The notes under the pieces are model-generated. The model saw only the letters and a program-made list of their open reading frames with translations, did no database searches and was not told where the DNA came from. From positions 720,001 through 752,000 of the forward strand of contig CP047921.1 of NCBI GenBank assembly GCA_010202845.1: a DNA stretch of 32,000 nt. The letters are read 5' to 3'. Made by a program: the position numbers and the translations under genes. The DNA comes from Candidatus Saccharibacteria bacterium oral taxon 488. Lineage in GTDB: Bacteria; Patescibacteriota; Saccharimonadia; Saccharimonadales; Saccharimonadaceae. Below, piece by piece: positions 7,404-30,234 of the stretch (position 1 is the stretch's first letter; every line of letters begins with the position of its first letter).

Positions 7404-8366
7404 TCAATCCCTCTTTAACATCACCATAAACGCTTCTGATGGAATGTCAACCTTGCCAAAGCGTTTCATGCGCTTTTTGCCGCGAGCTTGTTTGGCGAGA
7501 AGTTTCTTTTTTCGGCTGACATCGCCGCCGTAGAGGTAGCCGGTGACATCTTTGCGGTAAGCACCGATGTTTTCGCGAGCGATGAATTTGCCGCCAATTG
7601 CTGCCTGCAGTGCCACCTCAAAGCTCTGACGCGGCACCACGTCTTTCAGCTTTTTGACGATCTCACGACCCAAACCTGGCGCCTCCGAGCGGTGACACAT
7701 GACGCTCAGCGCATCAACCATTTCACCCGCCACGTAGAAATCCACCCGCACCAAATCTTCCGGCTGATAGCCCGCCAGTTCATAATTAAACGAGCCGTAG
7801 CCGCTGGTTACCGACTTCAATTGATCATAAAAATCCGTCAGCAAATTGGCCAGCGGTGCCGTAAACGAAATCAGTGCCCGCTCGTCGATGTAACTGAGGT
7901 TTTTTTGCCGACCGCGCTTGGCGACAATCAGCTGAATCACCGCACCGATATAGTCCTGCGGCACCACAATCTCACCATCAATCCACGGCTCGCGAACCTC
8001 GGTGATCTGCACTGGATCGGGCAATTCGCTGGCTGACTTGATGTCCAGCTCCTCGCCGTTGGTGAGGCTAACTTGGTAATCCGTGCTCGGATTGGTGACA
8101 ATAAGATCCAGATTATACTCACGCTCCAGCCGCTCACGAATAATATCCATGTGTAGCAGCCCCAAAAAGCCAATCCGCACACCATACCCCAACACTGGTG
8201 AATTCTCCGGCTCAAACTGCAGCGCCGAATCGCTCAGACTCAGCTTTTCAATAGCCTCCTTCAGATCATTGTAATCTTCGTTGGACACCGGGAAAAAGCC
8301 CGCGTAGACGAAGGGCTTGACTTCTTTGTAGCCGGGCAGGGGCTGGACGGTGATTTTTTCAGTCAT
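7404..8366 (-). CDS. lepA: elongation factor 4 (LepA), C-terminal half (domains III, V and the LepA C-terminal domain) as a separate ORF
   Basis: MTEKITVQPLPGYKEVKPFVYAGFFPVS...GFLGLLHMDIIRERLEREYNLDLI...GGDVSRKKKLLAKQARGKKRMK is colinear with E. coli LepA from ...[23 protein letters not shown] to the end. The G domain and domain II are missing; they are encoded at 19789-20865. Confidence 0.92.
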   Translation of the reverse strand: MTEKITVQPLPGYKEVKPFVYAGFFPVSNEDYNDLKEAIEKLSLSDSALQFEPENSPVLGYGVRIGFLGLLHMDIIRERLEREYNLDLIVTNPSTDYQVSLTNGEELDIKSASELPDPVQITEVREPWIDGEIVVPQDYIGAVIQLIVAKRGRQKNLSYIDERALISFTAPLANLLTDFYDQLKSVTSGYGSFNYELAGYQPEDLVRVDFYVAGEMVDALSVMCHRSEAPGLGREIVKKLKDVVPRQSFEVALQAAIGGKFIARENIGAYRKDVTGYLYGGDVSRKKKLLAKQARGKKRMKRFGKVDIPSEAFMVMLKRD

Positions 8367-8377
8367 AACTGCCTACT

Positions 8378-8386
8378 ATTATATCA
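8378..8386 (-). promoter_or_regulatory. extended -10 box TGATATAAT, 11 nt upstream of the lepA C-half ATG
   Basis: The minus strand reads TGATATAAT-AGTAGGCAGTT-ATG(8366). This is the same motif class as other apparently leaderless genes in the window. Confidence 0.4.
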
Positions 8387-8411
8387 GTTGAGCGTTTACC
8401 TACTCAACTGA
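8384..8411 (-). terminator. hairpin after the 803-aa gene
   Basis: TCAGTTGAG (8384-8392) / CTCAACTGA (8403-8411) form a perfect 9-bp stem with a 10-nt loop, 5 nt downstream of the stop at 8417-8419. There is no clear U-tract. Confidence 0.35.
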
Positions 8412-8416
8412 TCGCG

Positions 8417-10828
8417 TCAACGAATTGGTCCATGTGGAGGTGTGACTATTCCTGCCCGTATAGCCCTGACATATTTGCCCAAGCTGCCCGGCATGTCACG
8501 CCAAAATTCATCGTCATATCGCCCCGACAAGACATCTGCCAAACGCTTGTCCTGATAGTGCTCGATTTGCTCGTATAGCTCACACAATCGCCAGATGATA
8601 AGCTGGTCGCTGTAGCTTGTTAAGCCTACATGTTTTAGGTTGTTAAACTGACCAACTAGCTGACGCATAATCTTAATGTTAGTATCTTCTGTAGACAGCA
8701 AGTCACTCACGAACTCATTTATATCAAACTTTCCTAACGGCGGTTTAACTAGGCTTATAAACTCAATAAATCTCGGCAGACACTTCTTCTCCTTCGCCTC
8801 TTTCGCTAACTCACCAAAATCTGCTTCGACACCCCAATACAATTCTTCTTCCTCTACAGAATCATTAGTAACCAGCCTACCGTCTCCAAACACATCATCA
8901 AACTCACCGCCCATCTCCTTGACTAATGGCTCCGCAAAACGCTTGTATTCACGGAATAGTTCGACACCCTTCCCGTCTTTTATTAAACCATTGATGACAT
9001 CCATGCAGCTACTATCAGCACCGTATCCATAGAGATTACGGTAAATATCTAGCTGGTCTATGCCATAACGCTTTTGATAGCGTTCGTCTCGCGTAAAGAA
9101 TACGCCCCTATCATAGAAAAATACCTTAAGCTTCTCCGCCTGATCAATATGGCGATCAAGGACCAGTCCACCCAGTTTGTCAATAGCCAAAATACCATGA
9201 TAAGCTATAGTTTCCACGTCCTCCACAAAATCACGTTCCGCTCGTGCAGATTGCAGCTTAGCGATACCGCCGTTTTTCCAGAAATAGCTTTCGCCAACAC
9301 TACTATCAGCCCCAAACCACAGCATCATGATGTCCCTTAGGGACAGATCCTCCCCCTTTTGCTGCTTGGTACAAATCTCATCAATCTTTTCGATTGTATG
9401 TATGGTGTCCAATTTATCCTGACCATTAGATAATTCACCGATTCTCTCATGCAGTGCATCTGTCATACACGACTCAACTCGACAGTCATCGCCATCAATC
9501 CCCAAAATCATTTTTATATCACCACCTTCACCCAGACACATCATGATACGAGGAATATTGTATCTACCGGTTGTGAATACAAGTATCTTAGTGATATTTC
9601 TATGGCCAAAGGAATCGTAACTTGATAGTGCAACCTTATACAAAAAGTCATAAATAGAGCCTGAGTCACCAGGGAACCAGCCGGTACATTGACCCTCAAG
9701 TAACGCCTGCACCTCCTCGGCTGTACCTTTTTGGGGCGTGGAAGAATCCTTATACTTACAAATTATTTCATGCCACTCCCCTTGAGTCTCTCGACGTCGC
9801 TCTTGCCCTAGGCCTGTTCGGATCGCTACCTCCCTGCCATACAGCTCACCAAACTTAGCCGCCTCCAGTTCATCGGGCCTATATTTCCACAAAGTTTCAT
9901 ATACCGCCTCAAGCGCCGCAGGATTTACCTCTGGCAAAAGTCTCTTGCTACCAGTTCGGCGAACATCAAATGTTTTGGTTTGCGGATTAAACTCTCCTAG
10001 TTCTGGACAGGCATCGATCACATAGGACAAAAACCAGTCAGGATATCTCCCGGCCTCCAATGCCGCCTTCCACTCGCCCAGACGCCCAAGCTGTGCCTTA
10101 TGAAAGTTACCAACCAACTTAATCTGCGTATCATGATTGTACCAAGCTTCGTCAAGGCCGAATCGTTCACTCCAACGAGGCGACGAAGATGATAACTGAC
10201 GCAGCTCCTCTTCACTAGGCAAACTGTTGACAATCTTACTTTCGGCCACCGGTATCGACATAATATATGAACGATACGGATATCTGTCCGGACCAGTATA
10301 CCAGTTGGGCTTGGTGGTACTTTGCTGAGGCGGCAGTGGCGATTCTTCCTCCTCTAAGTCTGTTGTTTTACCTAGGATATACCGAGTTAGCAACCTCAGC
10401 TTCTTTGTATCGTCAGCCGGATTTTTTGAACCGTATACATTCCCCAGGCGGCTATACCTCTTCACCAGTATCTCCAGGTTGCCATCCCGCCATTCACTAC
10501 CTAGCCTAGTAAAGATATCGCTTGCGAGTAGTCGCTCCAACTCCTCTGGAGTAGCATGCTCAGTCATGACGTCAAATACTGCAAATATTCTCGCGCTTCG
10601 TTCCTGAGACTTCCAGCCCTCCTCTGGATCTTTAAACTCATCCAAAGATATACGGAGAGCTTCCGCCATTTGGCCAGCTACATCAAACGTGTCGGGCGCT
10701 TCTTTTCGAAGTTGCGCTACAACCTGACCCATCTTGTCAGCGGAAACATAGTCTTTGCGAAGCTCACCTTCTAGGGTCGGATCAAGAGCGGGTCTATCAG
10801 GTGTCTCCCGATATTTATCAATCATCAT
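8417..10828 (-). CDS. hypothetical protein, 803 aa (ORFan to my eye)
   Basis: Long uninterrupted ORF with TATAAT 8 nt upstream of the ATG. It is acidic and soluble-looking, with no TM helices and no motif I can assign. Confidence 0.7.
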   Translation of the reverse strand: MMIDKYRETPDRPALDPTLEGELRKDYVSADKMGQVVAQLRKEAPDTFDVAGQMAEALRISLDEFKDPEEGWKSQERSARIFAVFDVMTEHATPEELERLLASDIFTRLGSEWRDGNLEILVKRYSRLGNVYGSKNPADDTKKLRLLTRYILGKTTDLEEEESPLPPQQSTTKPNWYTGPDRYPYRSYIMSIPVAESKIVNSLPSEEELRQLSSSSPRWSERFGLDEAWYNHDTQIKLVGNFHKAQLGRLGEWKAALEAGRYPDWFLSYVIDACPELGEFNPQTKTFDVRRTGSKRLLPEVNPAALEAVYETLWKYRPDELEAAKFGELYGREVAIRTGLGQERRRETQGEWHEIICKYKDSSTPQKGTAEEVQALLEGQCTGWFPGDSGSIYDFLYKVALSSYDSFGHRNITKILVFTTGRYNIPRIMMCLGEGGDIKMILGIDGDDCRVESCMTDALHERIGELSNGQDKLDTIHTIEKIDEICTKQQKGEDLSLRDIMMLWFGADSSVGESYFWKNGGIAKLQSARAERDFVEDVETIAYHGILAIDKLGGLVLDRHIDQAEKLKVFFYDRGVFFTRDERYQKRYGIDQLDIYRNLYGYGADSSCMDVINGLIKDGKGVELFREYKRFAEPLVKEMGGEFDDVFGDGRLVTNDSVEEEELYWGVEADFGELAKEAKEKKCLPRFIEFISLVKPPLGKFDINEFVSDLLSTEDTNIKIMRQLVGQFNNLKHVGLTSYSDQLIIWRLCELYEQIEHYQDKRLADVLSGRYDDEFWRDMPGSLGKYVRAIRAGIVTPPHGPIR

Positions 10829-10836
10829 TGATCACG

Positions 10837-10842
10837 ATTATA
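10837..10842 (-). promoter_or_regulatory. -10 box TATAAT, 8 nt upstream of the 803-aa gene start
   Basis: The minus strand reads TATAAT-CGTGATCA-ATG(10828), with no Shine-Dalgarno. Confidence 0.4.
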
Positions 10843-10874
10843 CTACTTTTTAATAATTTGTCAATTATATTATG

Positions 10875-12578
10875 CTAGCAGGTTGCACCCTGGCGAGTTT
10901 TCTTCAGTATCTCAGCAATCTTCTCCTTTTGCTCGGGGCTGTAGAAATAGCCTAACGCTTTACTCATACCACCGCCTTTCCCCTTAGCACGGTATCGTGA
11001 CGGCTGTCCAAAATTGGGGTCGTTCCTTATTAAACTATCAACTATCCTATCAAATAGAGGGGCACTACAATGTAACTCACGCATGATCTCTTTTTTTACT
11101 TGATACCCTTCAGGAGCCAACTCCGTATAGCCTTCACTTCTGAGATACTTACCTATCTTATCAACTTGCTCCGGTGACAAGCCTTCACGAATTCTCACCT
11201 GACCACTTTCAGCGACAAATCTATAGATTTCAGGCCGTAGGTTCAGCAAGTCCATGGCATCTCTCACCAATTTCAAACCCACCCCAAGGCGCTTTGTTGC
11301 CGTACTTATCATGGCATATCCCTCTGGTGGTGGAGGCGCAAATAACCCATTCTCCTGTGCTTTTCTCATAATCATTGCCTGCTGCTCCGGACTATAAAAC
11401 TCGTGCACCTGACCAGAACGACACTTTATACCATCAGATAGGACACCAGCTTTTTTAAGTTCTCTTGCTATCCTTATCAGTGCCATCACTGTCACATCTA
11501 CAGTTTTGGCGAGAGCAGTGATTGTCAAATACCCCTCTGGGGGCGGCTGTGTAAACAACCCTCTCTCCTCAAGCCTTTTTCGTATTACTTCAACCTGCTC
11601 TTCAGTAAAAATTGATTGCTCTTCTCCATACCAATCTCGCTTAGCTACACATCCCAACAAACCCTCCTGATTCAATTCAGCAATGTGTCTTACGATGGTG
11701 CGATACACTACTCCAAACTTAGCTGCCAATTGATTGGCATTCATCATCCCCTCTTCATTCGCCTGAGGGGGATTTAGATAATTACCCCCGCGCCGGGTAT
11801 CCACCCCAGCTGATTGCTGAATATCATTCGCTAGCGCCTCCACTAGGTGCGGCACAAACTGCTTGTCGCAGCGTACCGATACACCACAGTCTGGATATTG
11901 CTCCATCACCCCCGCAAGCTGCGTTTTCGTACAGGTAGCCAGCTTTGCCCGCTCTTCTTCTGGCAGCCGCGTTGTATCAAATACAAAGGTACCGTTACCG
12001 TAGGCGTCACAAATTAGCACCGTCCGCTCGAGCGGTGGGATATTCACCTCATGGTATGGCTCTTGGCGCATCATCGCTGTCTCCACTGACCCACGACGAA
12101 TCTGTAATGCTTCGCCGCTCGGCTCAATACCAAATTCATTTGCCAACACGAATAGCAGTGTTTTCAGCCGGGGTTGGCGAGTCGCCCTCTCACGGTGGGG
12201 CGCCTCGGACACACTGGCGGTAGGCCCGGGCCGCTCATCGGGTGGCACAAAGACATGGTCAGTCGATTCAATCTGGCCAATAACCGTATCAATAGCTATG
12301 AGCTGCTCCGCTTTGTCAGCAATATGGCCAAGCAACTCATTGAGCGGCTCTATGCCGTAGTAAGCAAACACCGCATTCTCCCTTTCACCAGAATTGTCTA
12401 GCCAAATCGTTGGCTGATGGTTGTATACTTGCACCATATCATTAATTAGCTGGATCAATTTATCCAAGGCAGCCTCAGCGTAGGTATCGACATTTTCAAC
12501 CGTCAACGGTTGATTAATAATTTCCTCTACACTGCTTGCAAAGTCCTTGCCATGATCAATACTACCGAGTCGCTCCAT
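10875..12578 (-). CDS. hypothetical protein, 567 aa, with four tandem ~71-aa HTH-like modules in the C-terminal half
   Basis: Modules at roughly aa 270-346, 347-417, 418-488 and 489-560 each follow the pattern (P)PEGY-x-helix-turn-helix-like segment-...-(Y/L)SPEQ-x3-I-x6-G. They resemble MerR/excisionase-type HTH units. The N-terminal 270 aa is unassigned. Confidence 0.7.
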   Translation of the reverse strand: MERLGSIDHGKDFASSVEEIINQPLTVENVDTYAEAALDKLIQLINDMVQVYNHQPTIWLDNSGERENAVFAYYGIEPLNELLGHIADKAEQLIAIDTVIGQIESTDHVFVPPDERPGPTASVSEAPHRERATRQPRLKTLLFVLANEFGIEPSGEALQIRRGSVETAMMRQEPYHEVNIPPLERTVLICDAYGNGTFVFDTTRLPEEERAKLATCTKTQLAGVMEQYPDCGVSVRCDKQFVPHLVEALANDIQQSAGVDTRRGGNYLNPPQANEEGMMNANQLAAKFGVVYRTIVRHIAELNQEGLLGCVAKRDWYGEEQSIFTEEQVEVIRKRLEERGLFTQPPPEGYLTITALAKTVDVTVMALIRIARELKKAGVLSDGIKCRSGQVHEFYSPEQQAMIMRKAQENGLFAPPPPEGYAMISTATKRLGVGLKLVRDAMDLLNLRPEIYRFVAESGQVRIREGLSPEQVDKIGKYLRSEGYTELAPEGYQVKKEIMRELHCSAPLFDRIVDSLIRNDPNFGQPSRYRAKGKGGGMSKALGYFYSPEQKEKIAEILKKTRQGATC

Positions 12579-12585
12579 GTACGAT

Positions 12586-12594
12586 ATTATAGCA
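12586..12594 (-). promoter_or_regulatory. extended -10 box TGCTATAAT, 7 nt upstream of ATG 12578 (leaderless)
   Basis: The minus strand reads TGCTATAAT-ATCGTAC-ATG, with no Shine-Dalgarno. Confidence 0.5.
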
Positions 12595-12775
12595 TCTTAT
12601 ACTATTATTGTAAATAGTGGGCCCTCTCAATCACAAATAACCACCTTAACCCAGCCACATATTCTTTACTGAATCCCATAATGGCACACTCATGTCTTTA
12701 TCAAATTGAAAATTTAGTTCTCATTAGTGGATTATCGGGTCGGCAAGGGCGCTCAATCCTCTATAATAATGTCTT

Positions 12776-13744
12776 TTAATAGGTCGGTTTAGAATAAGCC
12801 TGCTGTTCGCCATAGCCGATGCGTAGCAAAATAGTCGGATATTCTCCGGCCAGACCCAGTGTCTTTGCCATTTCTGCGGCAATTTCTGGCTGCTCATTTG
12901 GCTGGTTCAGATAGGCATGAGCGATCCCAAGCTCCGTGGCAGTCAGCAAGAAACGCTGCAGCGTCCGACCCAAACTCACCCATTCGCACCGACTATTTTC
13001 TCTCGTCGTAAAAAGAACCAGATGAGAAGCCGATGCTATCTTTTCGCGATCGGCCTTATTCTGCGTCTTAGCATTGATAGCCATCGACATGATCGGCTCA
13101 GCCATCCAGCGCGGCACATTAGGCGCGCCAAACACAGCATAACTCAGCCCGTCAAGTGTTTGATCTTGATGCTTCTTGTTAAATCGCATCCAGCTTTTCA
13201 ATTCAGCCTTAAACGCCTCATTTTGCATTTGACGTACATTTCCTTGAAAGACACATTGTTCAATATCATGAAATTGCTCTGTTTGATGTGCGTAATAATG
13301 AACTGAGACACCCTTTTCATTGCTAACGGATTGTAGTTTCTTTAGTGCATCCGGAGCAATTTCCTCACCGGTATAAATGCTACGATTAATCTGCCGTGCA
13401 TCTATCTGTTCGAACAATGGACTCGGCTTGATACCAGCATCTTCTGTAAGTGAAATCGTGATAACTCCCGTATCACCAATTGAAATGGTAGATTTATAGC
13501 CCTTGGTTTGCGCTGCCAAGCAGAGGTTCTCGGCTGCACAGCCCAGACTCACGAATAACTCCCTGTTGTCAGGGTCGACTACTGGTAGCTTTCTGTCAAA
13601 ATCAGGATAAATTTCTACCGCCGACTCGTTCTGACGAAATTTCCACGGCTGAGTATTATGGCCTGACGGCGCCTTGACAGCTTGCGCAACCAAAAATTCA
13701 AAGCTAGCTGATGATATGTTGTTACTGCGAGACATTCTTACCAT
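12776..13744 (-). CDS. Acg-type (double-domain) nitroreductase family FMN oxidoreductase
   Basis: The N-terminal AVKAPSGHNTQPWKF motif and the ~320-aa two-lobed length match the Acg/Rv2032-like nitroreductase family. The start is ambiguous (TTG 13756, ATG 13744 or ATG 13735). Confidence 0.7.
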   Translation of the reverse strand: MVRMSRSNNISSASFEFLVAQAVKAPSGHNTQPWKFRQNESAVEIYPDFDRKLPVVDPDNRELFVSLGCAAENLCLAAQTKGYKSTISIGDTGVITISLTEDAGIKPSPLFEQIDARQINRSIYTGEEIAPDALKKLQSVSNEKGVSVHYYAHQTEQFHDIEQCVFQGNVRQMQNEAFKAELKSWMRFNKKHQDQTLDGLSYAVFGAPNVPRWMAEPIMSMAINAKTQNKADREKIASASHLVLFTTRENSRCEWVSLGRTLQRFLLTATELGIAHAYLNQPNEQPEIAAEMAKTLGLAGEYPTILLRIGYGEQQAYSKPTY

Positions 13745-13832
13745 AATTCTACCCAATACACGAGCCTTCCCATCTCGTTAGCTACTTCTTATAACCAAGT
13801 ATACTCACCCTATAGGAGCGAGGTCAATCAAT

Positions 13833-13943
13833 ATCGCCAAGACTAAGCTTTCAGCCATTCTTCTTGAAATCATTGTAATCCTCGTTAGATGCCAGGAAAA
13901 AGCCTGACTATCCTACTTACACCATTCTAACCGCCTGAGTCAT
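13833..13943 (-). pseudogene. lepA: decayed copy of the first ~135 nt of the lepA C half (junction remnant C')
   Basis: The minus strand starts with ATGACT, as the real C half does. It then reads ...GGCTTTTTCCTGGCATCTAACGAGGATTACAATGATTTCAAGAAG..., which aligns to lepA 8229-8366 (GFFPVSNEDYNDLKEAIEKLSL). It carries an internal deletion, a 1-nt indel and an in-frame TAA. Confidence 0.75.
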
Positions 13944-14031
13944 GACCTTAGGCGGGCGAGAGTGTTCTATGTATTGCCAGACAGATGTCGCAGGCTAGAT
14001 TGGTCTATATTACCAACTCGTATGCATGTTC

Positions 14032-16647
14032 CTATACGAGCCTATCTAGCCCCTGTCCAAGTTTGATACTGTAAGGATAAGCTGGGTCAAAAACTTCTGC
14101 GCGTTCAAAATCGATCGGCCGCATTGATGCAATACGGTATTGCCCATTATCATCCCTGCTATACTCAATGATAAAATCTTTCAAACGCCATGGTTTATCA
14201 ATCCCTGTATCATGCCGTACGGTCTCAGCGATGTCTTGTATGCGCGAAAGGGCGTCAGTCATCAGCTCTCGCTGATTTGACTCCGGCACAGCATTGTCCA
14301 CAAAGAAATTGCGTACCGTTCGCCCGCTCTCGCCATTTATCTTCTCCATCACAACAAAACCTTGTTGCCCGTTCGTAAAGACCCGAGCAATTGGCTTTGG
14401 CGCGTCAACGCCAAGCTTGCGTAGCAACAAAAGCGCCTCGAACTCATCGACTGGCCCCCGACGCTTTGCCTCCACGACATTCTTCACAATCACCTCGGTG
14501 TCGCCAGCAAGCGATAGCCCAAAAACTGCCTCACCAGGATACGGATCGTTTGGGTTCGCTATTTTGAGTGATGTCGCCGACTGCAGTAGTTCGGTGCCAA
14601 TATCAGGACTTGAGAACAGTTCGGATAACTGGCCTTTTACTGCCTCACTATAACTACTGTCGATCCTCATTTCTCGCTGATTTTCCAGGCTTCTCACTTC
14701 GTAACCCAAGTTAACCGGCTCCGTGTTTTTTAGCTCGCGAGTATAGTAATGCCGGTGCAGAGCTAGCTGTGTCATACGAAAAGCCAGACGTTCACTGGGG
14801 CTAGTCGGTCGACTATACGGTTCCAACCGGCCATCTTCAGTGCGATACAAACCCCCTGCTGACTCTTCGTCCTTGACATTGTATTCTATAGTATCTACTA
14901 TATTATTTCTTTCCAGCTTGTCACCTTTCAGACCCAGCACCGTTCTTGGTCGGTCTCTTGCACTAAGCAGTCTAATTCGGCTATCATAATCATAGTCTGA
15001 CCCTGGCACCCCTAGCACGCTCATGATATCGTCAGGAATCGTTCCTGTAAATCCAGTGTCATAGTAATGGGCGGCGTCTGGGTGCTGGATATGAGAACGC
15101 AGGTACTCGCCTTTTACTTCGTCGTTAAAGTTATTGCAAAACTTTCGCGGATACACAAGGTAGGTAGGAAACTCTATGAGCGACCCGCCTGTCGCACGGC
15201 TACTCATACCGAGTTTGCGGCGGCGGGCGTAGAGTTGAGCACGGCGCCCCACGTACGCATAGACACCGTCACGACCGAGGAATACTTCTTCAAATTCTCT
15301 CTCGCCTATCCGCTTAGTGTCCCACTCGGCAAACAATCTATCGTAGTAGCCAGTATCAACTTCAAGTACCTGATTGAATATTTTAGCCGCTCTTTCCAGG
15401 GTTTCAGATATATCAATCTCTCCCATCTCGGCTATATAGTCTGCCACCAGCCTGCGGTAGGTCGGCCAGGCATCACCCGTCTTGTCTCCTCGCCCACCGA
15501 ATAACTCTTGGACATACCGGTCTCCGTACCGCGACGCTATATCCTTCTGCAGTTTATCGTAGGCCTGTTTAATAGTCTCTCTCAATCTCCTATCATCTTC
15601 GGTTTTGGGAAGTCGCAAACGTCGATCGGCCTGAACCGCTCTTTTGTGAAATTCCGTCCCCGGTCGAGATGATGTCACATGCTCTATGTCACCCGCCTCG
15701 TCTGCGTATGGATGATATTTCACTATACCGCGCAGCTCTGGCTTGAGTTCGGCAATATATGCACGTAACCTAGACGCCTCTTCTGCACCAATAAGCCCCT
15801 CCAGGTCAAGCTGAGTAACTTTTTGCGCAGTCGAGTAGTGGTTTGCACATGCCCACAATACAGTACTCCGTGCGACTGTGTCCATACCGTAGTATGATAA
15901 ATGACCAAGGACGGCATCTGCTAGATCGTCGCTTAATTTTATCTTATCTATACAGCTAAGGACTATTTCTGGGGCAGTTTCACCAAAGACATATACGCAT
16001 TGCAGTACCTGTAATTCATAGCCGGCATCAATGAGTTCGTAGGCGATACTAGCATCAAGGCCGGTAAAGTTCTTGAGGTAGCCAGCAACTACATCACCGT
16101 GGCCGGTATTGATGATTTTGTGGGCAATTTCATTGTGATCGAGACCAGTAAAGTTCTTGAGGTAGTAGGTGACTGTCCCACAATTACCAGCATCGATGAG
16201 TTTGTGGGCAATTTCATTGTGATCAAGGCCGGTGAAGTTCTTGAGGTAGTAGGCAACTGTCCCACTCTCACAGGCATCGATGAGTTTGTGGGCAATACTA
16301 GCATCAAGGCCGGTGAAGCTATCGAGGTTGCGGGCAACTGCCCGACCATGGCCGGCATTGATGAGTTTGTGGATGTCATGGTTCGTCAATTGATGGTTAG
16401 AATTCTCGCTTACCAGAGTCTCAAGCAACTCATCAACAGTGTATGTATCTTCTACCGCCTGCTTAAACCCTCTCTCACCATCTCGCGCAACATGACCAAC
16501 AAGAGAATTCTCGACACAAGAAAGACCTTCGTGATTCTCTGCCCGACCCGCAGAGTCCCCTGTCAAGTCTTCAGAGTCCAATGAACCTTCGGTTATGTAT
16601 TCAGAATCATCTACTCTTATAATTTTTCCTGTTTCGTGACCGTTCAT
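14032..16647 (-). CDS. hypothetical multidomain protein, 871 aa (N-terminal 27/28-aa helical repeats, C-terminal kinase-like region)
   Basis: AAGGAAAAA Shine-Dalgarno. Aa ~90-230 carry 4-5 repeats of HKLIDAGxxGxVxxYLKNFTGLD(HNE/AS)IA. The centre has FLGRDGVYAY ... YYDTGFTGTIPDD, faintly HAD-like. The last ~170 aa carry VIVK, EFEALLLLRKLG, VVMEKINGES and PIDFERAE, spaced like an APH/choline-kinase/RIO-type fold. Confidence 0.7.
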   Translation of the reverse strand: MNGHETGKIIRVDDSEYITEGSLDSEDLTGDSAGRAENHEGLSCVENSLVGHVARDGERGFKQAVEDTYTVDELLETLVSENSNHQLTNHDIHKLINAGHGRAVARNLDSFTGLDASIAHKLIDACESGTVAYYLKNFTGLDHNEIAHKLIDAGNCGTVTYYLKNFTGLDHNEIAHKIINTGHGDVVAGYLKNFTGLDASIAYELIDAGYELQVLQCVYVFGETAPEIVLSCIDKIKLSDDLADAVLGHLSYYGMDTVARSTVLWACANHYSTAQKVTQLDLEGLIGAEEASRLRAYIAELKPELRGIVKYHPYADEAGDIEHVTSSRPGTEFHKRAVQADRRLRLPKTEDDRRLRETIKQAYDKLQKDIASRYGDRYVQELFGGRGDKTGDAWPTYRRLVADYIAEMGEIDISETLERAAKIFNQVLEVDTGYYDRLFAEWDTKRIGEREFEEVFLGRDGVYAYVGRRAQLYARRRKLGMSSRATGGSLIEFPTYLVYPRKFCNNFNDEVKGEYLRSHIQHPDAAHYYDTGFTGTIPDDIMSVLGVPGSDYDYDSRIRLLSARDRPRTVLGLKGDKLERNNIVDTIEYNVKDEESAGGLYRTEDGRLEPYSRPTSPSERLAFRMTQLALHRHYYTRELKNTEPVNLGYEVRSLENQREMRIDSSYSEAVKGQLSELFSSPDIGTELLQSATSLKIANPNDPYPGEAVFGLSLAGDTEVIVKNVVEAKRRGPVDEFEALLLLRKLGVDAPKPIARVFTNGQQGFVVMEKINGESGRTVRNFFVDNAVPESNQRELMTDALSRIQDIAETVRHDTGIDKPWRLKDFIIEYSRDDNGQYRIASMRPIDFERAEVFDPAYPYSIKLGQGLDRLV
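16022..16400 (-). repeat. in-frame tandem repeat, about 4.5 units of 81/84 bp, inside the 871-aa gene
   Basis: Unit starts are at 16022, 16103, 16187, 16271 and 16352. Units 16103-16186 and 16187-16270 are near-identical at the DNA level. Confidence 0.9.
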
Positions 16648-16881
16648 TTTTTCCTTTTACCTATTGATGATTATGGTCTATATTGTAATATATAGCCACT
16701 GAACGCCGCAAGTATTCTATTCTAAAGTGTCTTACTCGCAGGATTAGGTTTGCAGCTCAGAGAGGACTGTTCCGCCATATTTAGCATGGCGTATCTAACG
16801 ACTATGGTCATGGTGGATCGGCTGAGGGGATCGGGTCTTGACATGGTTTTTCAATCAGCTTGATTTAGCAAAATACTTGGT

Positions 16882-17196
16882 TTACTCCCACCGCCGCGTG
16901 CTATTGATCTCGTGCTTCTCAAAATACACTTCCGCCAAATTAACATCAAACCGATTCGCCAGCTCCATCAAATAATTCAGTACATCCGCAAATTCCTCGT
17001 GCAGATTATCATGGTTATCAGGTCTTTTTTCTCCCTTAAATCCCGTCTCTTTGCGAATCGCTTTCGCCAGCTCGCCAACCTCCTCAGTAAACAATAAGAA
17101 TACTTCGGTAACAGAATTTTTATCCCATCCTTTTTCTTTACACGTTTGATCGAGGTGTTTTTGTAATTCAGTTAAGCTGATTGTTTGTGGATTCAT
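16882..17196 (-). CDS. MazG-like nucleoside triphosphate pyrophosphohydrolase (small, single domain)
   Basis: 104 aa with the EEVGELAKAIRK ... EEFADVLNYLMELA motif pair typical of the all-alpha MazG/NTP-PPase fold. GAGGAGAAG Shine-Dalgarno. Confidence 0.8.
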   Translation of the reverse strand: MNPQTISLTELQKHLDQTCKEKGWDKNSVTEVFLLFTEEVGELAKAIRKETGFKGEKRPDNHDNLHEEFADVLNYLMELANRFDVNLAEVYFEKHEINSTRRWE

Positions 17197-17240
17197 ACTT
17201 CTCCTCTATTTATCTCGTTATCGACGCGAATGGCTTGCGT

Positions 17241-17849
17241 TTATAATTCAACATCCGGCAAGTCCTTCAACTTCTTGCCGTCAAAGCAAAAATACGCTGC
17301 ACCCTGATAGGCACCGCTATTGTTGGCTTGATTTTTATCTTCGAAGATCTTTCGCACTAGCGGCGACAGTAGCCACCGCTGTCCGCCATACTCAACTTCA
17401 CGTTCGCCGACAACTTTAGCGACAATCGTCTGGTCTTTGCTAAAGACAATTTTATCGCCGTTTTTGAGGCCTTTTCGATAAAAGCTAAACTTTTGATTAC
17501 TGTTCTTGGCTTTGGTGATTTTATCAAATTCCGCTTCTTTATTTTTCTGCTCCGGAAAGATCACCTCACCCTCAAACGACAGCAGCAGTTGTCGCACCAA
17601 ATCATAATCAAGCGCGAAAAGCTCGCTACTACCGACTCGATGCTTGGCAAATATTTCGTGCAGTAATGTTTCCTTTTCGGAGTAGTCAGCCACCTCGATC
17701 GCGAACAACCGCTTCAAACCAACCACATTGTAGTAGCCGTTCGCCTCGAGAAAACGCATCCGCTCTGGGTATTGCTTGGTTTGCGCCTTGCCGATTTTGA
17801 TAAGGCCTGACACTGCGGTGGTCATGACGTAGATGATGCCTTTGCTCAT
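17241..17849 (-). CDS. GIY-YIG / T5orf172-family nuclease-like protein with a C-terminal extension
   Basis: The N terminus GIIYVMTT...GLIKIGKAQ...ERMRFL...EKETLLHEIFAKHRVGSSELFAL matches the T5orf172/GIY-YIG-like pattern. AAGGAGGA Shine-Dalgarno. The C-terminal ~90 aa is unassigned. Confidence 0.7.
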   Translation of the reverse strand: MSKGIIYVMTTAVSGLIKIGKAQTKQYPERMRFLEANGYYNVVGLKRLFAIEVADYSEKETLLHEIFAKHRVGSSELFALDYDLVRQLLLSFEGEVIFPEQKNKEAEFDKITKAKNSNQKFSFYRKGLKNGDKIVFSKDQTIVAKVVGEREVEYGGQRWLLSPLVRKIFEDKNQANNSGAYQGAAYFCFDGKKLKDLPDVEL

Positions 17850-18019
17850 TATAATTCCTCCTTATAACTAATATTCTACACTACTTTCACAGAACCTAGC
17901 TTGTTGAAGAATCACTATTTATAACCTGAGAGGCCTCCAGCCGGTCTCTCAGTTGAAAATATTGGCTGGCAGACACTTTGACCGGGTCGTCTGAAGTATC
18001 AATCACAGTTTACTCTGCA

Positions 18020-18142
18020 TTTTCTCAACGTAACCGTATCAGCTACCCGCGCCTCACGAGTGGTGTTGAGGTTGGTAATAATGTAGCCGGGTAGCAGTGT
18101 TTCCTTTCCGGAATATTCAGTCGCCCCAATCGCTTCATGCAT
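18020..18142 (-). pseudogene. lepA: decayed copy of the lepA N-half 3' end (junction remnant N'3)
   Basis: It translates to MHEAIGATEYSGKETLLPGYIITNLNTTREARVADTVTLRK, then unrelated CRVNCD*. By hand alignment, 54 of 69 nt are identical to lepA 19807-19875. Similarity stops at the same Lys codons as in the real gene. Confidence 0.8.
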
Positions 18143-18192
18143 AATGTTGTAGCATTTTATTTTATAAATAATGGCAACTCATTCTTAACTCA

Positions 18193-18870
18193 CTATGCTT
18201 TCGGCAAAAAACCGCGCGCCACGAGCGCCTGCCAAGCCGTGTCTGCCGAGAGAGATGACGGCTGAGGCGTTGAAAATCCCTTATCGGGATAGATCTTTAT
18301 CCGCTCGTAATCACCCAGCATCAACGTCAACATCATGACGGCACTGCCATAGGTTACCTCATATAAGCGATAATATGCCTCTAATGTTGTCGGCTGACTA
18401 GTTACATACAGTCGCGGCCGCGGGTGCGGCCACTGAGCCTCGGCGGTTGCCAAAAATCGACGCGTCATATACGGTTTATGAATTAAAATGATATCCTCAG
18501 CCTGGATCGCCGCCCCCGCCAGCAGCTGAGCCGAACGGATGATGTTTTCACCGGTATTAGCAGCTTGGTGCTCAAACAGAATCGCCGAGTCGGGCACCGC
18601 CAAGCATTGGAGCTGTCGTCCTAGCAGTGTCGCTTCGGTTTCCGTGGCCCTATGATAGGGATTAGCAAATCCTGACACCACAATCCATGAACTAATGCCC
18701 GCATGATACAGCTCGGCTGCTCGCTCGGCGCTATCGACCATAGCTCCCGCGCCACCGATCACGATAGCATCCGCCCGCACCGGTAGCCGACTCTCAACAC
18801 AAAGATATTCCCATAGCACATGAAGATGGTGCCAGTCTTGATCAGTGAGAGCTAGCTGACTACGCGACAT
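18193..18870 (-). CDS. YdcF/DUF218 (ElyC/SanA/YdcF) family protein
   Basis: 225 aa with AIVIGGAG...VVSGF...EATLLGRQL...ANTGENI, characteristic of the DUF218 family. The start overlaps the tail of remnant N'2. Confidence 0.75.
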   Translation of the reverse strand: MSRSQLALTDQDWHHLHVLWEYLCVESRLPVRADAIVIGGAGAMVDSAERAAELYHAGISSWIVVSGFANPYHRATETEATLLGRQLQCLAVPDSAILFEHQAANTGENIIRSAQLLAGAAIQAEDIILIHKPYMTRRFLATAEAQWPHPRPRLYVTSQPTTLEAYYRLYEVTYGSAVMMLTLMLGDYERIKIYPDKGFSTPQPSSLSADTAWQALVARGFLPKA

Positions 18871-18886
18871 GTGTTAGCTCTCGGTG

Positions 18887-18995
18887 TTTTTTCAATGTCG
18901 CTGTATCGCCCACCCGCACTTCACAGTTGATGACGATGTGGCCAATTTCACCGGTGTCCAGCGATGGGCTAGGATCATACCCTGACTGAGATTGA
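18887..18995 (-). pseudogene. lepA: decayed copy of the lepA N-half 3' end (junction remnant N'2)
   Basis: It lies inside the 78-aa ORF 18860-19096: ...[32 protein letters not shown], then unrelated HRELTHVA*. Hand alignment to lepA 19808-19905 gives a 37-nt block with 6 mismatches, a 12-nt gap and a 49-nt block with 6 mismatches. Confidence 0.85.
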
Positions 18996-19145
18996 TTATG
19001 ACACCGCTGCCAAAACTCCGGTACCACAAACGTGACCGACGACGCTGCGAAAGCAACTGCCAAATGCGTGTTGTATTCTCTGAAGAAGGATGTCATTCAT
19101 TCAGTATAGCATCTTACAAAGATGGAGTGACATCCACAGGGTTAC

Positions 19146-19784
19146 TTACGTTTCAACTTCCTTACGAGATATCCACACGACCATCATAATAGACCAGCCA
19201 AATAGTGACACTTCCGACACCACTGTCAATGGCACCGAGACTTCGCCCGCATAGTATGTGCCGACGACCTTTAGCAATGCAACACATACGCTTATTAGGA
19301 TAATCAGCCGAGATTTCGTAATAATTGCTACCGCAATAACACATGCAGACAATGCCAGCGCCATCCAATGTAGTCCCGCAAACAGTTGACTCGCCGATAA
19401 TACACTTGTTGCTGAGTCAATCGGCAATCCATTCACCGGATAAACGAGTCGGCCAAGCGCCATCATTGCGTAAAATGCGCCAATTGCCACAACAATACCT
19501 AGAGCAAGAACTACACCCATGCTAACAGGGTGGCGCCTCCTGAGATTACCGTACAATACCACAACAACGGCTAGCAACATTGACGACCCACATGCTAGCA
19601 TCTCATCTGCTATCTGAAAAGTAGTCTGGTGCTGTTGCACCCACGCCATCACACCCGAAATGTCTGCTGAAGGTATCGGCAGTGACATTGCAATACTAAT
19701 GCAGGCCGCGGCAAGCAAACCAAAACCCATCAACCATACGATACTACCAATATACGAAATACGCCGACTGCCTTGCTTCACCAC
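19146..19784 (-). CDS. hypothetical integral membrane protein (about 6 TM helices)
   Basis: 212 aa and strongly hydrophobic. GTG start with AAGGAG 7 nt upstream; that RBS lies in the last codons of the lepA N half. Confidence 0.6.
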   Translation of the reverse strand: MVKQGSRRISYIGSIVWLMGFGLLAAACISIAMSLPIPSADISGVMAWVQQHQTTFQIADEMLACGSSMLLAVVVVLYGNLRRRHPVSMGVVLALGIVVAIGAFYAMMALGRLVYPVNGLPIDSATSVLSASQLFAGLHWMALALSACVIAVAIITKSRLIILISVCVALLKVVGTYYAGEVSVPLTVVSEVSLFGWSIMMVVWISRKEVET

Positions 19785-19788
19785 TATC

Positions 19789-20865
19789 TCACTCCTTTGT
19801 CATATACTTTTTCAACGTCACCGTATCACCCACCCGTGCTTCACGCGTAGTCTTCAAGTTGGTGACGATGTAGCCAATTTCACCGGTATCCAGCGATGAG
19901 TCAGGGATCATGCCAGGACTAAGATGGCCAACTTCTAGTGCCAGCCCGTTAGCGCCAGTCGCCATCATATGAATTGCTTCACCTTTTTTGATTTGGCCGT
20001 CAACCACCCGCACATACAAAATCACCCCGCGGTAATCGTCATAATAACTATCAAAAATCAGTGCCCGCGTCGGGTCGTCCGGCTGGCCAGTTGGCGCTGG
20101 AATTCGCTCAACAATCGCCGCTAAAACTTGGTCAACATTCTGCCCAGTTTTGGCAGAAATATGAATAATGTCGCTTTCATCGCAGCCCAGCAAATTAATC
20201 ACCTGTTTGGACACCCGTGGCACATCAGCGGCCGGCAAATCAACCTTGTTCAGCACCGGAATGATCGTCAAATCCTGCTCCATCGCCAGGTATACATTCG
20301 CCAGCGTCTGCGCCTGAATGCCTTGGCTGGCGTCAACCACCAATACCGCGCCCTCGCAGGCCTGCAAACTACGCGACACCTCATAACTAAAGTCAACGTG
20401 ACCAGGCGTGTCGATGAGATTGAGATCGTAGACAGTTGGCTGAGCCAACCCATTCACACCGACATCTGCACAAACCCGAGAGTCAGACTGCGCTAAGCGG
20501 GTGGCAGTCGATGGGGTAGCGCCCGCTTCTGAAGAAATCTCTGATTTTTCAGAAGAAGGGGCGGATCGACTGGCAGGACCCGCGTCTAGCGACCGACGTG
20601 AAGACTCTGCAAGAGTCTTCGACGATGGGAGCGGTGATGCGCCGCTCACCTCCACCTCCTGATATTCATATTTCATCCGCACTGGCGCGAGCTTAATGGT
20701 GATCCCCTTCTCGCGCTCCAAATCCATACTATCCAGCAGCTGCGACTTCATCTCGCGCTTCTCCACCGTCCCCGTCATCTCCATCATCCGGTCCGCCAGC
20801 GTCGATTTACCGTGATCAATGTGAGCGATGATACAAAAATTACGAATACTGGTCAGCGGTTTCAT
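19789..20865 (-). CDS. lepA: elongation factor 4 (LepA), N-terminal half (G domain + domain II) as a separate ORF, with a ~72-aa low-complexity insertion
   Basis: [15 protein letters not shown] (G1), GITIK (G2), DTPGHVDF (G3) and NKVDL (G4). It is colinear with E. coli LepA up to ...VGDTLTL, then reads KKYMTKE*. The start overlaps the murJ stop (TGATG). Confidence 0.92.
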
Positions 20866-29679: not shown

Positions 29680-30234
29680 CTAAACAAGAGCATTCTCAAC
29701 AATGTATTGAGAGGCCTCTGCAAATTTCTCTTTCCACAGACAATCCTTTAAGGCCGCACCCCCGAGAAGCTTCCTTCTAACACTGAAAAAAGTTAATAAG
29801 TCCCAGGGATCGGGCTTCTCCCCGTCCAAACGTTGCATCTGCACATCATGGAGTAAACCTACCAACGGCGATACTCTATTACTATCAAACTGAAAGGTCG
29901 GATAAAGGTGATATCCGTGATCAGGAACTGCAAGAACGCTACCGCGGCGCACCGCAGCAAGTGTAATGCTGGAAGCATACTCCCCACCACCAAGCTCTTT
30001 GACTGCCTCTTCTGTCGTCAGGAATTGATTTTCTTTCAAGAGTTGATTTCTCGCCTCATTGGCGCGTGCAATTGCCCCGAGGTACATCTGATACCCTGGC
30101 GACCTCGAATTACTCAAACCATCAGGACAGCCCTCTCTAAAATCTCTATCAATCTGATTCCTCCACTGAGCATCGATTTCTGAAGGAAACTGTCTAGCGG
30201 GTAGTTGAGGCAATGAACTTAGACGCTCTGTCAT
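29680..30234 (-). CDS. hypothetical protein, C terminus faintly resembling the Xre/MbcA/ParS antitoxin toxin-binding (DUF2384-like) domain
   Basis: 184 aa. The C-terminal PWDLLTFFSVRRKLLGGAALKDCL resembles the W...LgG..P.d.l pattern. TGCTATATT lies 8 nt upstream of the ATG. The family call is weak. Confidence 0.4.
   Translation of the reverse strand: MTERLSSLPQLPARQFPSEIDAQWRNQIDRDFREGCPDGLSNSRSPGYQMYLGAIARANEARNQLLKENQFLTTEEAVKELGGGEYASSITLAAVRRGSVLAVPDHGYHLYPTFQFDSNRVSPLVGLLHDVQMQRLDGEKPDPWDLLTFFSVRRKLLGGAALKDCLWKEKFAEASQYIVENALV

Follow-up and report, generated by a model that had tools for sequence, protein, structure and literature searches.

The Locus and Its Genes

The subject of this study is a gene of Candidatus Saccharibacteria bacterium oral taxon 488, located in a stretch of 32,000 nucleotides (GenBank assembly GCA_010202845.1, contig CP047921.1, positions 720,001 to 752,000) that was analyzed at its full length and is referred to below as the window, with coordinates counted from its first letter. 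The gene (10875..12578, minus strand) is a complete open reading frame (ORF) with an ATG start that encodes 567 amino acids (aa), and its product combines an N-terminal, family-defining domain with four consecutive winged-helix modules. The principal result is that in this family up to ten modules, each the size of the Streptomyces protein BldC, are fused head-to-tail behind an N-terminal domain that is without detectable relatives, an arrangement of the MerR fold that we have not found described in the literature; the DNA-binding fold of the module, the MerR/BldC-type winged helix, is known, and it is the arrangement that is new. Those Patescibacteria that have been cultivated combine tiny genomes with a life attached to other bacteria, and no function has been assigned to the majority of the proteins specific to their lineage.

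The gene lies inside an island of 11.4 kb (about 8367-19788) that separates the two halves of lepA (EF4) and that also holds the genes of an 803-aa protein, a nitroreductase, an 871-aa protein, a T5orf172 protein, a DUF218 protein, and a 212-aa protein. Its immediate downstream neighbor is the 803-aa gene (8417..10828, minus strand), which belongs to an uncharacterized family found in the oral clade only. A sequence-only reading of this DNA, made without database searches, had given the limits and start codon of the 567-aa ORF, as well as the 46-nt gap between its stop codon and the 803-aa ORF, correctly.

The same reading had proposed a leaderless-type promoter for the 567-aa gene, and this is borne out by the sequence upstream of the start codon (12586..12614, minus strand), where TTTACA is followed after a 17-nt spacer by TGcTATAAT (11 of 12 positions matching), 7 nt separate the -10 box (TGCTATAAT) from the ATG, and a Shine-Dalgarno motif is lacking. 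A -10 box placed 7-8 nt before the start, again without a Shine-Dalgarno motif, is present at six of the eight homologue loci compared across Saccharibacteria, and a seventh has a weaker, -10-like box at a distance of about 10 nt; the putatively leaderless arrangement thus recurs across the family. It is not unique to the 567-aa gene, since four of the 25 genes of the window (gmk, the 803-aa gene, the 567-aa gene, and the gene at 29680-30234) have a -10 box 6-8 nt before the start; the promoter of the 803-aa gene (10837-10864, minus strand; TTGACA-16-TATAAT) matches the sigma-70 consensus at 12 of 12 positions, ends 8 nt before the ATG, and is likewise without a Shine-Dalgarno motif.

The Repeat Modules and Their Fold

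The C-terminal half of the protein had been read as four similar units, and this division is confirmed, with borders that agree within a few residues, by an independent hidden Markov model (HMM) built from 31 modules taken from six homologues with only 27-35% identity to the window protein, which was itself excluded from the model. The HMM finds exactly four modules: module 1 at aa 276-346 (11541..11753, minus strand; E 9.5e-9), with the sequence NEEGM...FTEEQVEVIRKRLEERGLF; module 2 at aa 347-417 (11328..11540, minus strand; E 6.8e-12), with PEGYLTITALAKTVDV...YSPEQQAMIMRKAQENGLF; module 3 at aa 418-488 (11115..11327, minus strand; E 1.1e-4); and module 4 at aa 489-566 (10881..11114, minus strand; E 2.2e-4), which has an enlarged basic wing, SRYRAKGKGGGMSK, and a net charge of +6. 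BLASTP comparison of the originally delimited units within the protein also returns self-matches, at 29% identity for the first and second (E 5e-8) and 28% for the third and fourth (E 0.004). The opening motif PEGY (NEEGM in the first unit) and the closing motif F/Y/L-S/T-P/E-EQ...I...L...G are present in the sequence as described, and the linkers between modules are short and proline-rich (GLFxPPPEGY).

In the full-length AlphaFold2 (AF2) model, which was computed from a 53-sequence alignment and has a mean predicted local distance difference test score (pLDDT) of 83.7 and a predicted template modeling score (pTM) of 0.57, all four modules are alike (b0-a1-a2-b1-b2-a3), each opening with a short strand at (P)EGY, which is followed by helices of 8 and of 12-13 residues, a beta hairpin, and a final helix of 13 residues. 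The predicted elements after the short first strand, in the order helix, helix, strand, strand, helix, are residues 281-288, 292-304, 312-316, 319-324, and 326-338 in module 1; 353-360, 364-376, 384-387, 391-395, and 397-409 in module 2; 424-431, 435-444, 450-455, 461-467, and 469-482 in module 3; and 495-502, 506-519, 527-532, 538-546, and 548-566 in module 4. The pTM of the full-length model is lower than that of the N-terminal domain modeled alone (below), which suggests that the modules do not hold fixed positions with respect to one another.

Only two helices precede the predicted wing, which points to the MerR/BldC/Xis arrangement and not to the three-helix arrangement of MarR and GntR. 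BldC, for comparison, is a protein of 68 residues with helices at 14-21 and 25-34, strands at 38-42 and 45-48, and a third helix at 51-60 (PMC5859096). Aligned by hhalign with BldC, whose query sequence was checked against PDB 6AMA, a profile of 100 modules gives a probability of 72.5% and an E-value of 3.3e-5 across 40 columns, the register being ambiguous in the wing. The search of the PDB with the module profile has its best sequence match in Cbp2 (2LVS; 2.5e-7), reaches RacA at 5.7e-3, and also touches the helix-turn-helix (HTH) regions of many MarR, GntR, CodY, and BirA proteins. Foldseek, run with the whole model against the PDB, yields no match below 1e-3 and aligns the RacA-DNA complex with a probability of 0.92, a template modeling score (TM) of 0.59, and an E-value of 0.23; against a library of viral structures (BFVD) it returns HTH, MerR-type, AlpA, PrtN, and KilAC proteins, the best at 6.5e-6. 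Among Pfam families, HTH_11 is matched in module 1 (27.4 bits, cut-off 25), MerR_1 is matched in homologue P0066 (25.4 bits, cut-off 21.6) and is without a match in the window protein, DUF4248 is above its cut-off in the same homologue, and more than 20 DNA-binding HTH families are matched across the modules of the homologues. The interpretation of the units as MerR/excisionase-type HTH domains is therefore supported as a statement about their predicted fold, by the topology of the model, the profile alignment with BldC, and the weak but consistent matches to RacA, Cbp2, MerR-type, AlpA, PrtN, and KilAC proteins. The motif that follows the wing (Y-S/T-x-E-Q-x-x-I-x-x-x-L-x-x-x-G) resembles Y-S/T-x-x-D-L-x-x-L, the hallmark of MerR proteins.

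Several narrower classes were considered and set aside. The three-helix winged-helix class (MarR, GntR, HTH_11; H1-b1-H2-H3-b2-b3) does not accommodate a module in which only two helices precede the wing, and the Pfam matches to this side (HTH_11, MarR, GntR, Crp) cover the HTH only, at about profile positions 13-47. The protein is also not a classical MerR regulator, as it is without the long C-terminal coiled-coil helix and without an effector domain of that group, its modules follow one another directly, and it has no full-length Pfam MerR match. Membership in the excisionase or recombination directionality factors is contradicted by its size of 567 aa and its multidomain organization, by the lack of an integrase in the 32-kb window, and by the absence of the family from IMG/VR. 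Homology to transcription activator-like (TAL) effectors was rejected as well, because a summed E-value of about 1e-5 is made up of single-repeat matches each with E of at least 48 that cover about 15 residues.

The N-Terminal Domain

The N-terminal domain comprises aa 1-262 (11793..12578, minus strand) and is predicted to consist of a helical part (aa 9-101, with helices at 9-21, 33-54, 63-74, and 79-101), a disordered linker (102-135), and an alpha/beta part (136-250). Modeled alone, it reaches a pLDDT of 84.9 and a pTM of 0.80, from which we take it that the two parts probably form one body. It is the better conserved half of the protein, with a mean column identity of 44% against 32% for the array, it is acidic (net charge about -20), and the window protein matches its HMM at 2.4e-92. 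The conserved residues are L83, L142, G163, R171, Y175, N195, and K218, the invariant polar ones being R171, Y175, N195, and K218, and the most conserved motif of the family lies in the alpha/beta part, where it reads MMRxExY...P.L.R.VL(V/I)CDEEGNATFVFD, or in short MMR...Y...CD(E/A)xGN.

The domain has no match in Pfam (weak matches pooled over 23 members included), NCBIfam, PHROGs, PADLOC, or, by sequence profile, the PDB, and it is without a detectable relative outside its own family. The Foldseek matches to serpin and KTSC proteins (E of at least 0.28, probability at most 0.25) were taken as noise, and GCN4-like matches to helix 79-101 at E of at least 0.2 amount to a possible hint of a coiled coil only. 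An enzymatic reading of the CDEEGN consensus was discarded, since the acidic pair is dispensable: the motif reads CDAYGN in the clade of the window protein and CDGYGN or CQEYGN in relatives, and this replacement makes a structural role of the motif more likely than a catalytic one.

Extent and Genomic Setting of the Family

The description of the 567-aa protein as an ORFan does not hold. A word-index search returns 77 homologues, and an exhaustive HMMER search, for which a profile of aa 1-262 was used, returns 1083 cluster representatives (clusters at 50% identity) at E of at most 1e-3, 436 of them at E of at most 1e-30. Homologues that are 90-99% identical come from genomes of about 0.86 Mb labeled 'Candidatus Saccharibacteria bacterium oral taxon 488', a group at about 63% identity includes a protein of Nanosynbacter lyticus, and the remaining homologues from the word-index search, at 24-39% identity, belong to environmental Saccharibacteria and to one metagenome-assembled genome of Nomurabacteria. 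A pattern scan of one genome per species adds a similar picture, with 20 loci that are mostly from Saccharibacteria and otherwise labeled Shapirobacteria, Nomurabacteria, Moraniibacteriota, and Peregrinibacteria. The source annotations of family members read 'hypothetical protein' or are automatic, such as 'helix-turn-helix domain-containing protein', and literature searches found no description of the family.

The window protein displays the organization that defines the family, an N-terminal domain of about 260 aa with the conserved residues followed by four PEGY...YSPEQQ modules. Among the 150 matches listed, the N-terminal domain is always at the N-terminus, in proteins of 294-1009 aa, and 201 family proteins contain between 0 and 10 modules, most often 4. 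The C-terminal part can also be of other kinds: a 703-aa protein from Moraniibacteriota (locus L023, 7701-9812), encoded between murG and murC, joins the family N-terminal domain to diverged 'APEGWMTN...EHYSPEL' repeats, and an 874-aa protein (locus L025, 7659-10283) joins the N-terminal core (MMR...LVCDEEGN) to different helical repeats of about 110 aa.

Outside the oral clade, the family gene is found elsewhere than at lepA and has no conserved neighbors; besides the murG-murC position at L023, it stands after ftsK (L003), between serS and hpf/secA (L027), or among hypothetical genes (L001, L004, L028). Each locus examined has one copy of the family gene, and no neighboring ORF contains the module or the N-terminal domain. 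The IMG/VR viral contigs searched yielded no family member, the 567-aa protein has no PHROGs family, and its comparison with PADLOC gives sub-threshold matches to HTH regions only (CasR, WYL; E above 2e-3) and no defence-system family.

Evolution of the Array

In some homologues (L027, L012, L015) neighboring modules are 83-97% identical at the DNA level, from which it follows that modules have been gained by recent duplication. Across the representative proteins, 82% of 742 modules have their nearest relative in another protein, and about 55% of first modules and of last modules pair with the same ordinal class. Modules therefore keep individual identities, which fits a composite target better than four identical sub-sites.

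Comparison with the orthologue at locus L005, which is 63% identical, reveals a sharp drop in sliding identity at codons of about 225-240 (11859..11906, minus strand), an approximate recombination breakpoint. The N-terminal 232 codons have diverged from L005 by 0.09 nonsynonymous (dN) and 0.26 synonymous (dS) substitutions per site (Nei-Gojobori), and the array by a dN of 0.39 and a dS of 1.02, so that dS rises from 0.26 upstream of the breakpoint to 1.0 downstream, with a dN/dS ratio (omega) that stays at about 0.36-0.39 on both sides. Positive selection on the array was rejected as an explanation, because its greater divergence from L005 is matched by a four-fold higher dS at the same omega; a shift in dS with equal omega indicates instead that two old array haplotypes have recombined onto similar N-terminal domains. 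Correspondingly, close strains carry two discrete array haplotypes (window 10875-11900, minus strand, compared with L005) that are about 45-59% identical per module on N-terminal domains that are about 80-90% identical. Mosaic N-terminal domains also occur, for example in P0006.

The array appears to pass between strains as a cassette, which may include the downstream gene, and such exchange is plausible given that natural transformation has been documented in Saccharibacteria (PMC10633639). Overall, the 567-aa protein evolves faster than the products of neighboring genes: relative to locus L029, its dN of 0.71 compares with values of 0.37 (803-aa protein), 0.18 (MurJ), and 0.02-0.03 (LepA halves).

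Proposed Mode of Action

We infer, at about even odds (a probability of roughly 0.5), that double-stranded DNA is bound by the array as a series of BldC/Xis-like units, covalently linked head-to-tail, each of which takes up about one helical turn, and that the acidic N-terminal domain serves as a common effector. On this model, the array would lie along the DNA like an oligomer of BldC or Xis on direct repeats, but with its units covalently joined; at about one helical turn per module, the four modules together would read a composite site of about 40 bp. The four sub-sites would differ from one another and not form identical repeats, since the identity of each module is conserved separately. 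The shared effector role of the N-terminal domain would be, for instance, the binding of a partner or ligand, or self-association. The single copy per locus, the lack of conserved neighbors, and the strong leaderless promoter make a genome-wide DNA-organizing or regulatory factor a more likely role for such a protein than local regulation of the 803-aa gene. The charge pattern of the modules agrees in part with DNA binding: position 23 of the module, in the recognition helix, and position 39, in the wing, are rich in basic residues (K/R 57% and R/K 80%, respectively), and the net charges of modules 2-4 of the window protein are +2, +1, and +6.

A number of observations speak against DNA binding of this kind. 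Across the family the modules are on average uncharged (median isoelectric point, pI, 6.8; net charge 0) and the whole proteins are acidic (median pI 5.2), a composition that one would not usually expect of a protein dedicated to DNA binding; the recognition helix varies greatly at its exposed positions; the DNA-contacting arginines of BldC cannot be mapped onto the modules with confidence, given the ambiguous alignment of the wing; and the matches of the modules to solved DNA-binding domains are all weak (best Foldseek match in the PDB at E 4e-3, RacA at E 0.23). The four-fold periodic operator repeats that the sequence-only reading had suggested searching for were not found: among the tandem and dispersed repeats of the window and of 29 related loci there are coding repeats and two-copy chance matches only. 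Finally, fast evolution, as seen in the dN of 0.71 to the L029 orthologue, is atypical for a core chromosome-organizing factor.

If the array does bind DNA in the manner of BldC and Xis oligomers, it would constitute a natural 'pre-assembled filament', and the family would then offer a candidate genome-organizing or global regulatory factor of the lineage together with a possible modular scaffold for DNA recognition. Saccharibacteria are now genetically tractable by natural transformation (PMC10633639), which makes the function directly testable.

Alternative Explanations

Several of the points just raised would be at home in a different function of the array, in which the winged-helix modules form a scaffold for proteins or RNA and the conserved N-terminal domain is the active part. 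There are precedents for such a use of the fold, as SelB binds mRNA through four tandem winged helices, and UFL1/DDRGK1 and cullins bind proteins through theirs. The best Foldseek match of the whole model in the PDB is in fact a UFL1-DDRGK1 tandem winged-helix chimera (E 4e-3), and a scaffold would suit the average lack of charge on the modules of acidic proteins, the hypervariable surface of the recognition helix next to module residues whose strongest conservation is in the core and structure (G, L, I, YSPEQQ), and the higher conservation of the N-terminal domain. However, the signature of the module is that of a standard DNA-type HTH, as the matches to more than 20 DNA-binding Pfam families attest, all of its closest specific matches (BldC, RacA, Cbp2, and MerR-type phage proteins) bind DNA, the recognition helix and the wing each have a conserved basic position, and SelB is not among the top structural matches. 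On balance we regard a scaffold as unlikely, although it deserves to be taken seriously.

The sequence-only reading had proposed that the 567-aa and 803-aa proteins act together, and in its strongest form this would make the former a dedicated partner or regulator of the latter within one system. The two genes are separated by the 46-nt gap on the same strand, with no terminator between them, and they adjoin in two oral lineages, namely at L006, a 93%-identical relative, and also at L029, where the 567-aa orthologue is only 32% identical; moreover, the array haplotype of the window co-occurs with the 803-aa gene, and the alternative haplotype at L005 precedes a 125-aa ORF instead. These observations give the proposal narrow support, and a functional link is possible in the oral clade. 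Beyond it the association breaks down: the 803-aa protein, which is not an ORFan either, has 57 homologues that are all at least 45% identical, so that its family is restricted to close oral relatives, as against 1083 representatives of the 567-aa family, mainly in Saccharibacteria with a few other loci labeled as candidate phyla radiation (CPR). No 803-aa homologue is present at L005 despite the 63%-identical orthologue there, no neighbor of that size stands at the distant loci examined, and the 803-aa gene has its own perfect promoter. A link with the 803-aa protein therefore cannot explain a family that is so much wider, and we give a dedicated partnership a low probability.

We are similarly hesitant about a bolder form of the DNA-binding model, in which the family would be a modular DNA reader comparable to TAL effectors, each MerR-type module recognizing a separate sub-site of about 10 bp, duplication and recombination reshuffling arrays of 1-10 modules to address long composite targets, and the N-terminal domain representing a new effector fold. 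Fast evolution, the exchange of whole arrays between strains, and the attachment of cultivated Saccharibacteria to host bacteria would even allow such targets to lie in host or invader DNA and not in the organism's genome, but we would call this form of the model a long shot.

Least probable is that the 567-aa protein is cargo, or an Xis-like directionality factor, of a mobile or defence island inserted in lepA and serves either the recombination of that island or a role against phages: its gene does lie inside the variable 11.4-kb island between the lepA halves, alongside relic copies of the lepA junction and a T5orf172 gene that matches the defence candidate PDC-S57, and Xis and other recombination directionality factors share the fold class of the module (PMC5859096, PMC11963761), but there is no integrase or recombinase in the window, the protein has no PADLOC or PHROGs family, the IMG/VR viral contigs hold no family member, the gene stands among housekeeping genes in several distant relatives, and Xis-type proteins lack a large conserved N-terminal domain. 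The DNA-binding chain with a common effector domain remains the reading that we prefer.

Relation to Known Systems

The closest parallel to this preferred reading is BldC, the founder of the BldC family of MerR-like proteins, which has about 68 aa and elements of the same order and size as each module. BldC (PDB 6AMA/6AMK) forms head-to-tail multimers on variable numbers of DNA direct repeats (PMC5859096), and such a multimer would be the non-covalent analogue of the tandem array. It differs in being a free single-domain protein that oligomerizes on DNA, whereas here the modules are fused in one chain, each diverged, behind a 260-aa N-terminal domain, and are expected to bind DNA by analogy. 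Lambda Xis, RdfS, and Gp36 of phage D29 are likewise small winged-helix proteins of the MerR-like kind, which assemble into filaments or oligomers along direct repeats and bend the DNA (PMC5859096, PMC11963761, PMC12266134), but they are single-domain proteins of mobile elements that are paired with a recombinase, in contrast to a chromosomal, multi-module family that is absent from the viral contigs searched.

The MerR regulators and RacA, which combines a MerR-type winged helix with a coiled coil, have the winged-helix type in common with the modules; they act as symmetric dimers on a palindrome with a coiled coil, whereas the window protein is predicted to be a monomeric tandem array. Several HTH repeats in one chain are also found in the archaeal proteins Cbp1 and Cbp2, which contain two or three imperfect HTH repeats and bind the CRISPR DNA repeat of about 25 bp (PMC3597662). 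The structure of Cbp2 (2LVS), a protein with two such repeats, tops the PDB matches of the module profile, although the units of these proteins are three-helix and homeodomain-like with basic linkers and no wing, number at most three, and come without the N-terminal domain. TAL effectors, as modular tandem DNA readers of variable repeat number, offer a parallel in principle, and the start of their repeat (LTPEQVVAIAS) and their N-terminal GYSQQQQEKI resemble the GYSPEQQxxI of the modules; this resemblance is limited to a short helix-cap motif, and the 34-aa, two-helix repeats of TAL effectors have a different fold.

The Split lepA and the Variable Island

The lepA gene is divided cleanly between domains II and III by the island. 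The N-terminal half (19789..20865, minus strand; 358 aa) comprises the GTPase domain and domain II and matches TIGR01393 up to position 281, and the C-terminal half (7404..8366, minus strand; 320 aa) comprises domains III-V, matches TIGR01393 at 278-594, and has its own TGaTATAAT box 11 nt before the ATG. The split is retained in three diverged relatives (L005, L006, L029), in which the gene content between the halves differs, and against L029 the two halves have dN/dS ratios of 0.09 and 0.03 at 94-98% amino-acid identity, which reveals strong purifying selection. From these sequence comparisons the split lepA looks like a functional two-piece translation GTPase, of which our literature searches found no description. 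The GTPase domain of the N-terminal half carries a low-complexity insertion of about 75 aa (about aa 66-143) that is rich in Ser, Ala, and Pro and that divides the Pfam and TIGR matches into two stretches; L005 has a shorter insertion and a 329-aa product.

Among the relatives, the island at L006 holds a methyltransferase and a MazG-like gene and that at L029 an SLFN/AlbA_2 gene. Relic copies of lepA sequence at 75% identity lie within the island of the window, one at 18888-18992 corresponding to 19808-19925 (the 3' end of the N-terminal half) and one at 13833-13904 corresponding to 8229-8300 (the 5' part of the C-terminal half), and further copies of the junction are found in L006; they resemble the scars that recombination at the lepA junction would leave after repeated insertion.

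Three other genes of the island merit a brief description. The T5orf172/GIY-YIG-like protein (202 aa; 17241-17849, minus strand) matches the PADLOC defence candidate PDC-S57 (E 2.7e-58) as well as PHROG families of homing endonucleases, and a partial copy of its gene, 46 nt long and 76% identical, lies at 18088-18133. The 871-aa protein (14032-16647, minus strand) is absent from L005, L006, and L029 and has about four tandem repeats of 28 aa (HKLIDAG...YLKNFTGLD; 16017-16372; 84-bp period, 76% matches); its C-terminus is weakly similar to APH/Kdo kinases (E 3e-3), with no other family match. The 212-aa ORF (19146-19784, minus strand), which has a Shine-Dalgarno motif and no family match, starts 4 nt after the stop codon of the N-terminal half of lepA, so that it lies between the 3' end of that half and the relic copy at 18888-18992, and it is conserved in L005 as an ORF of 211 aa.

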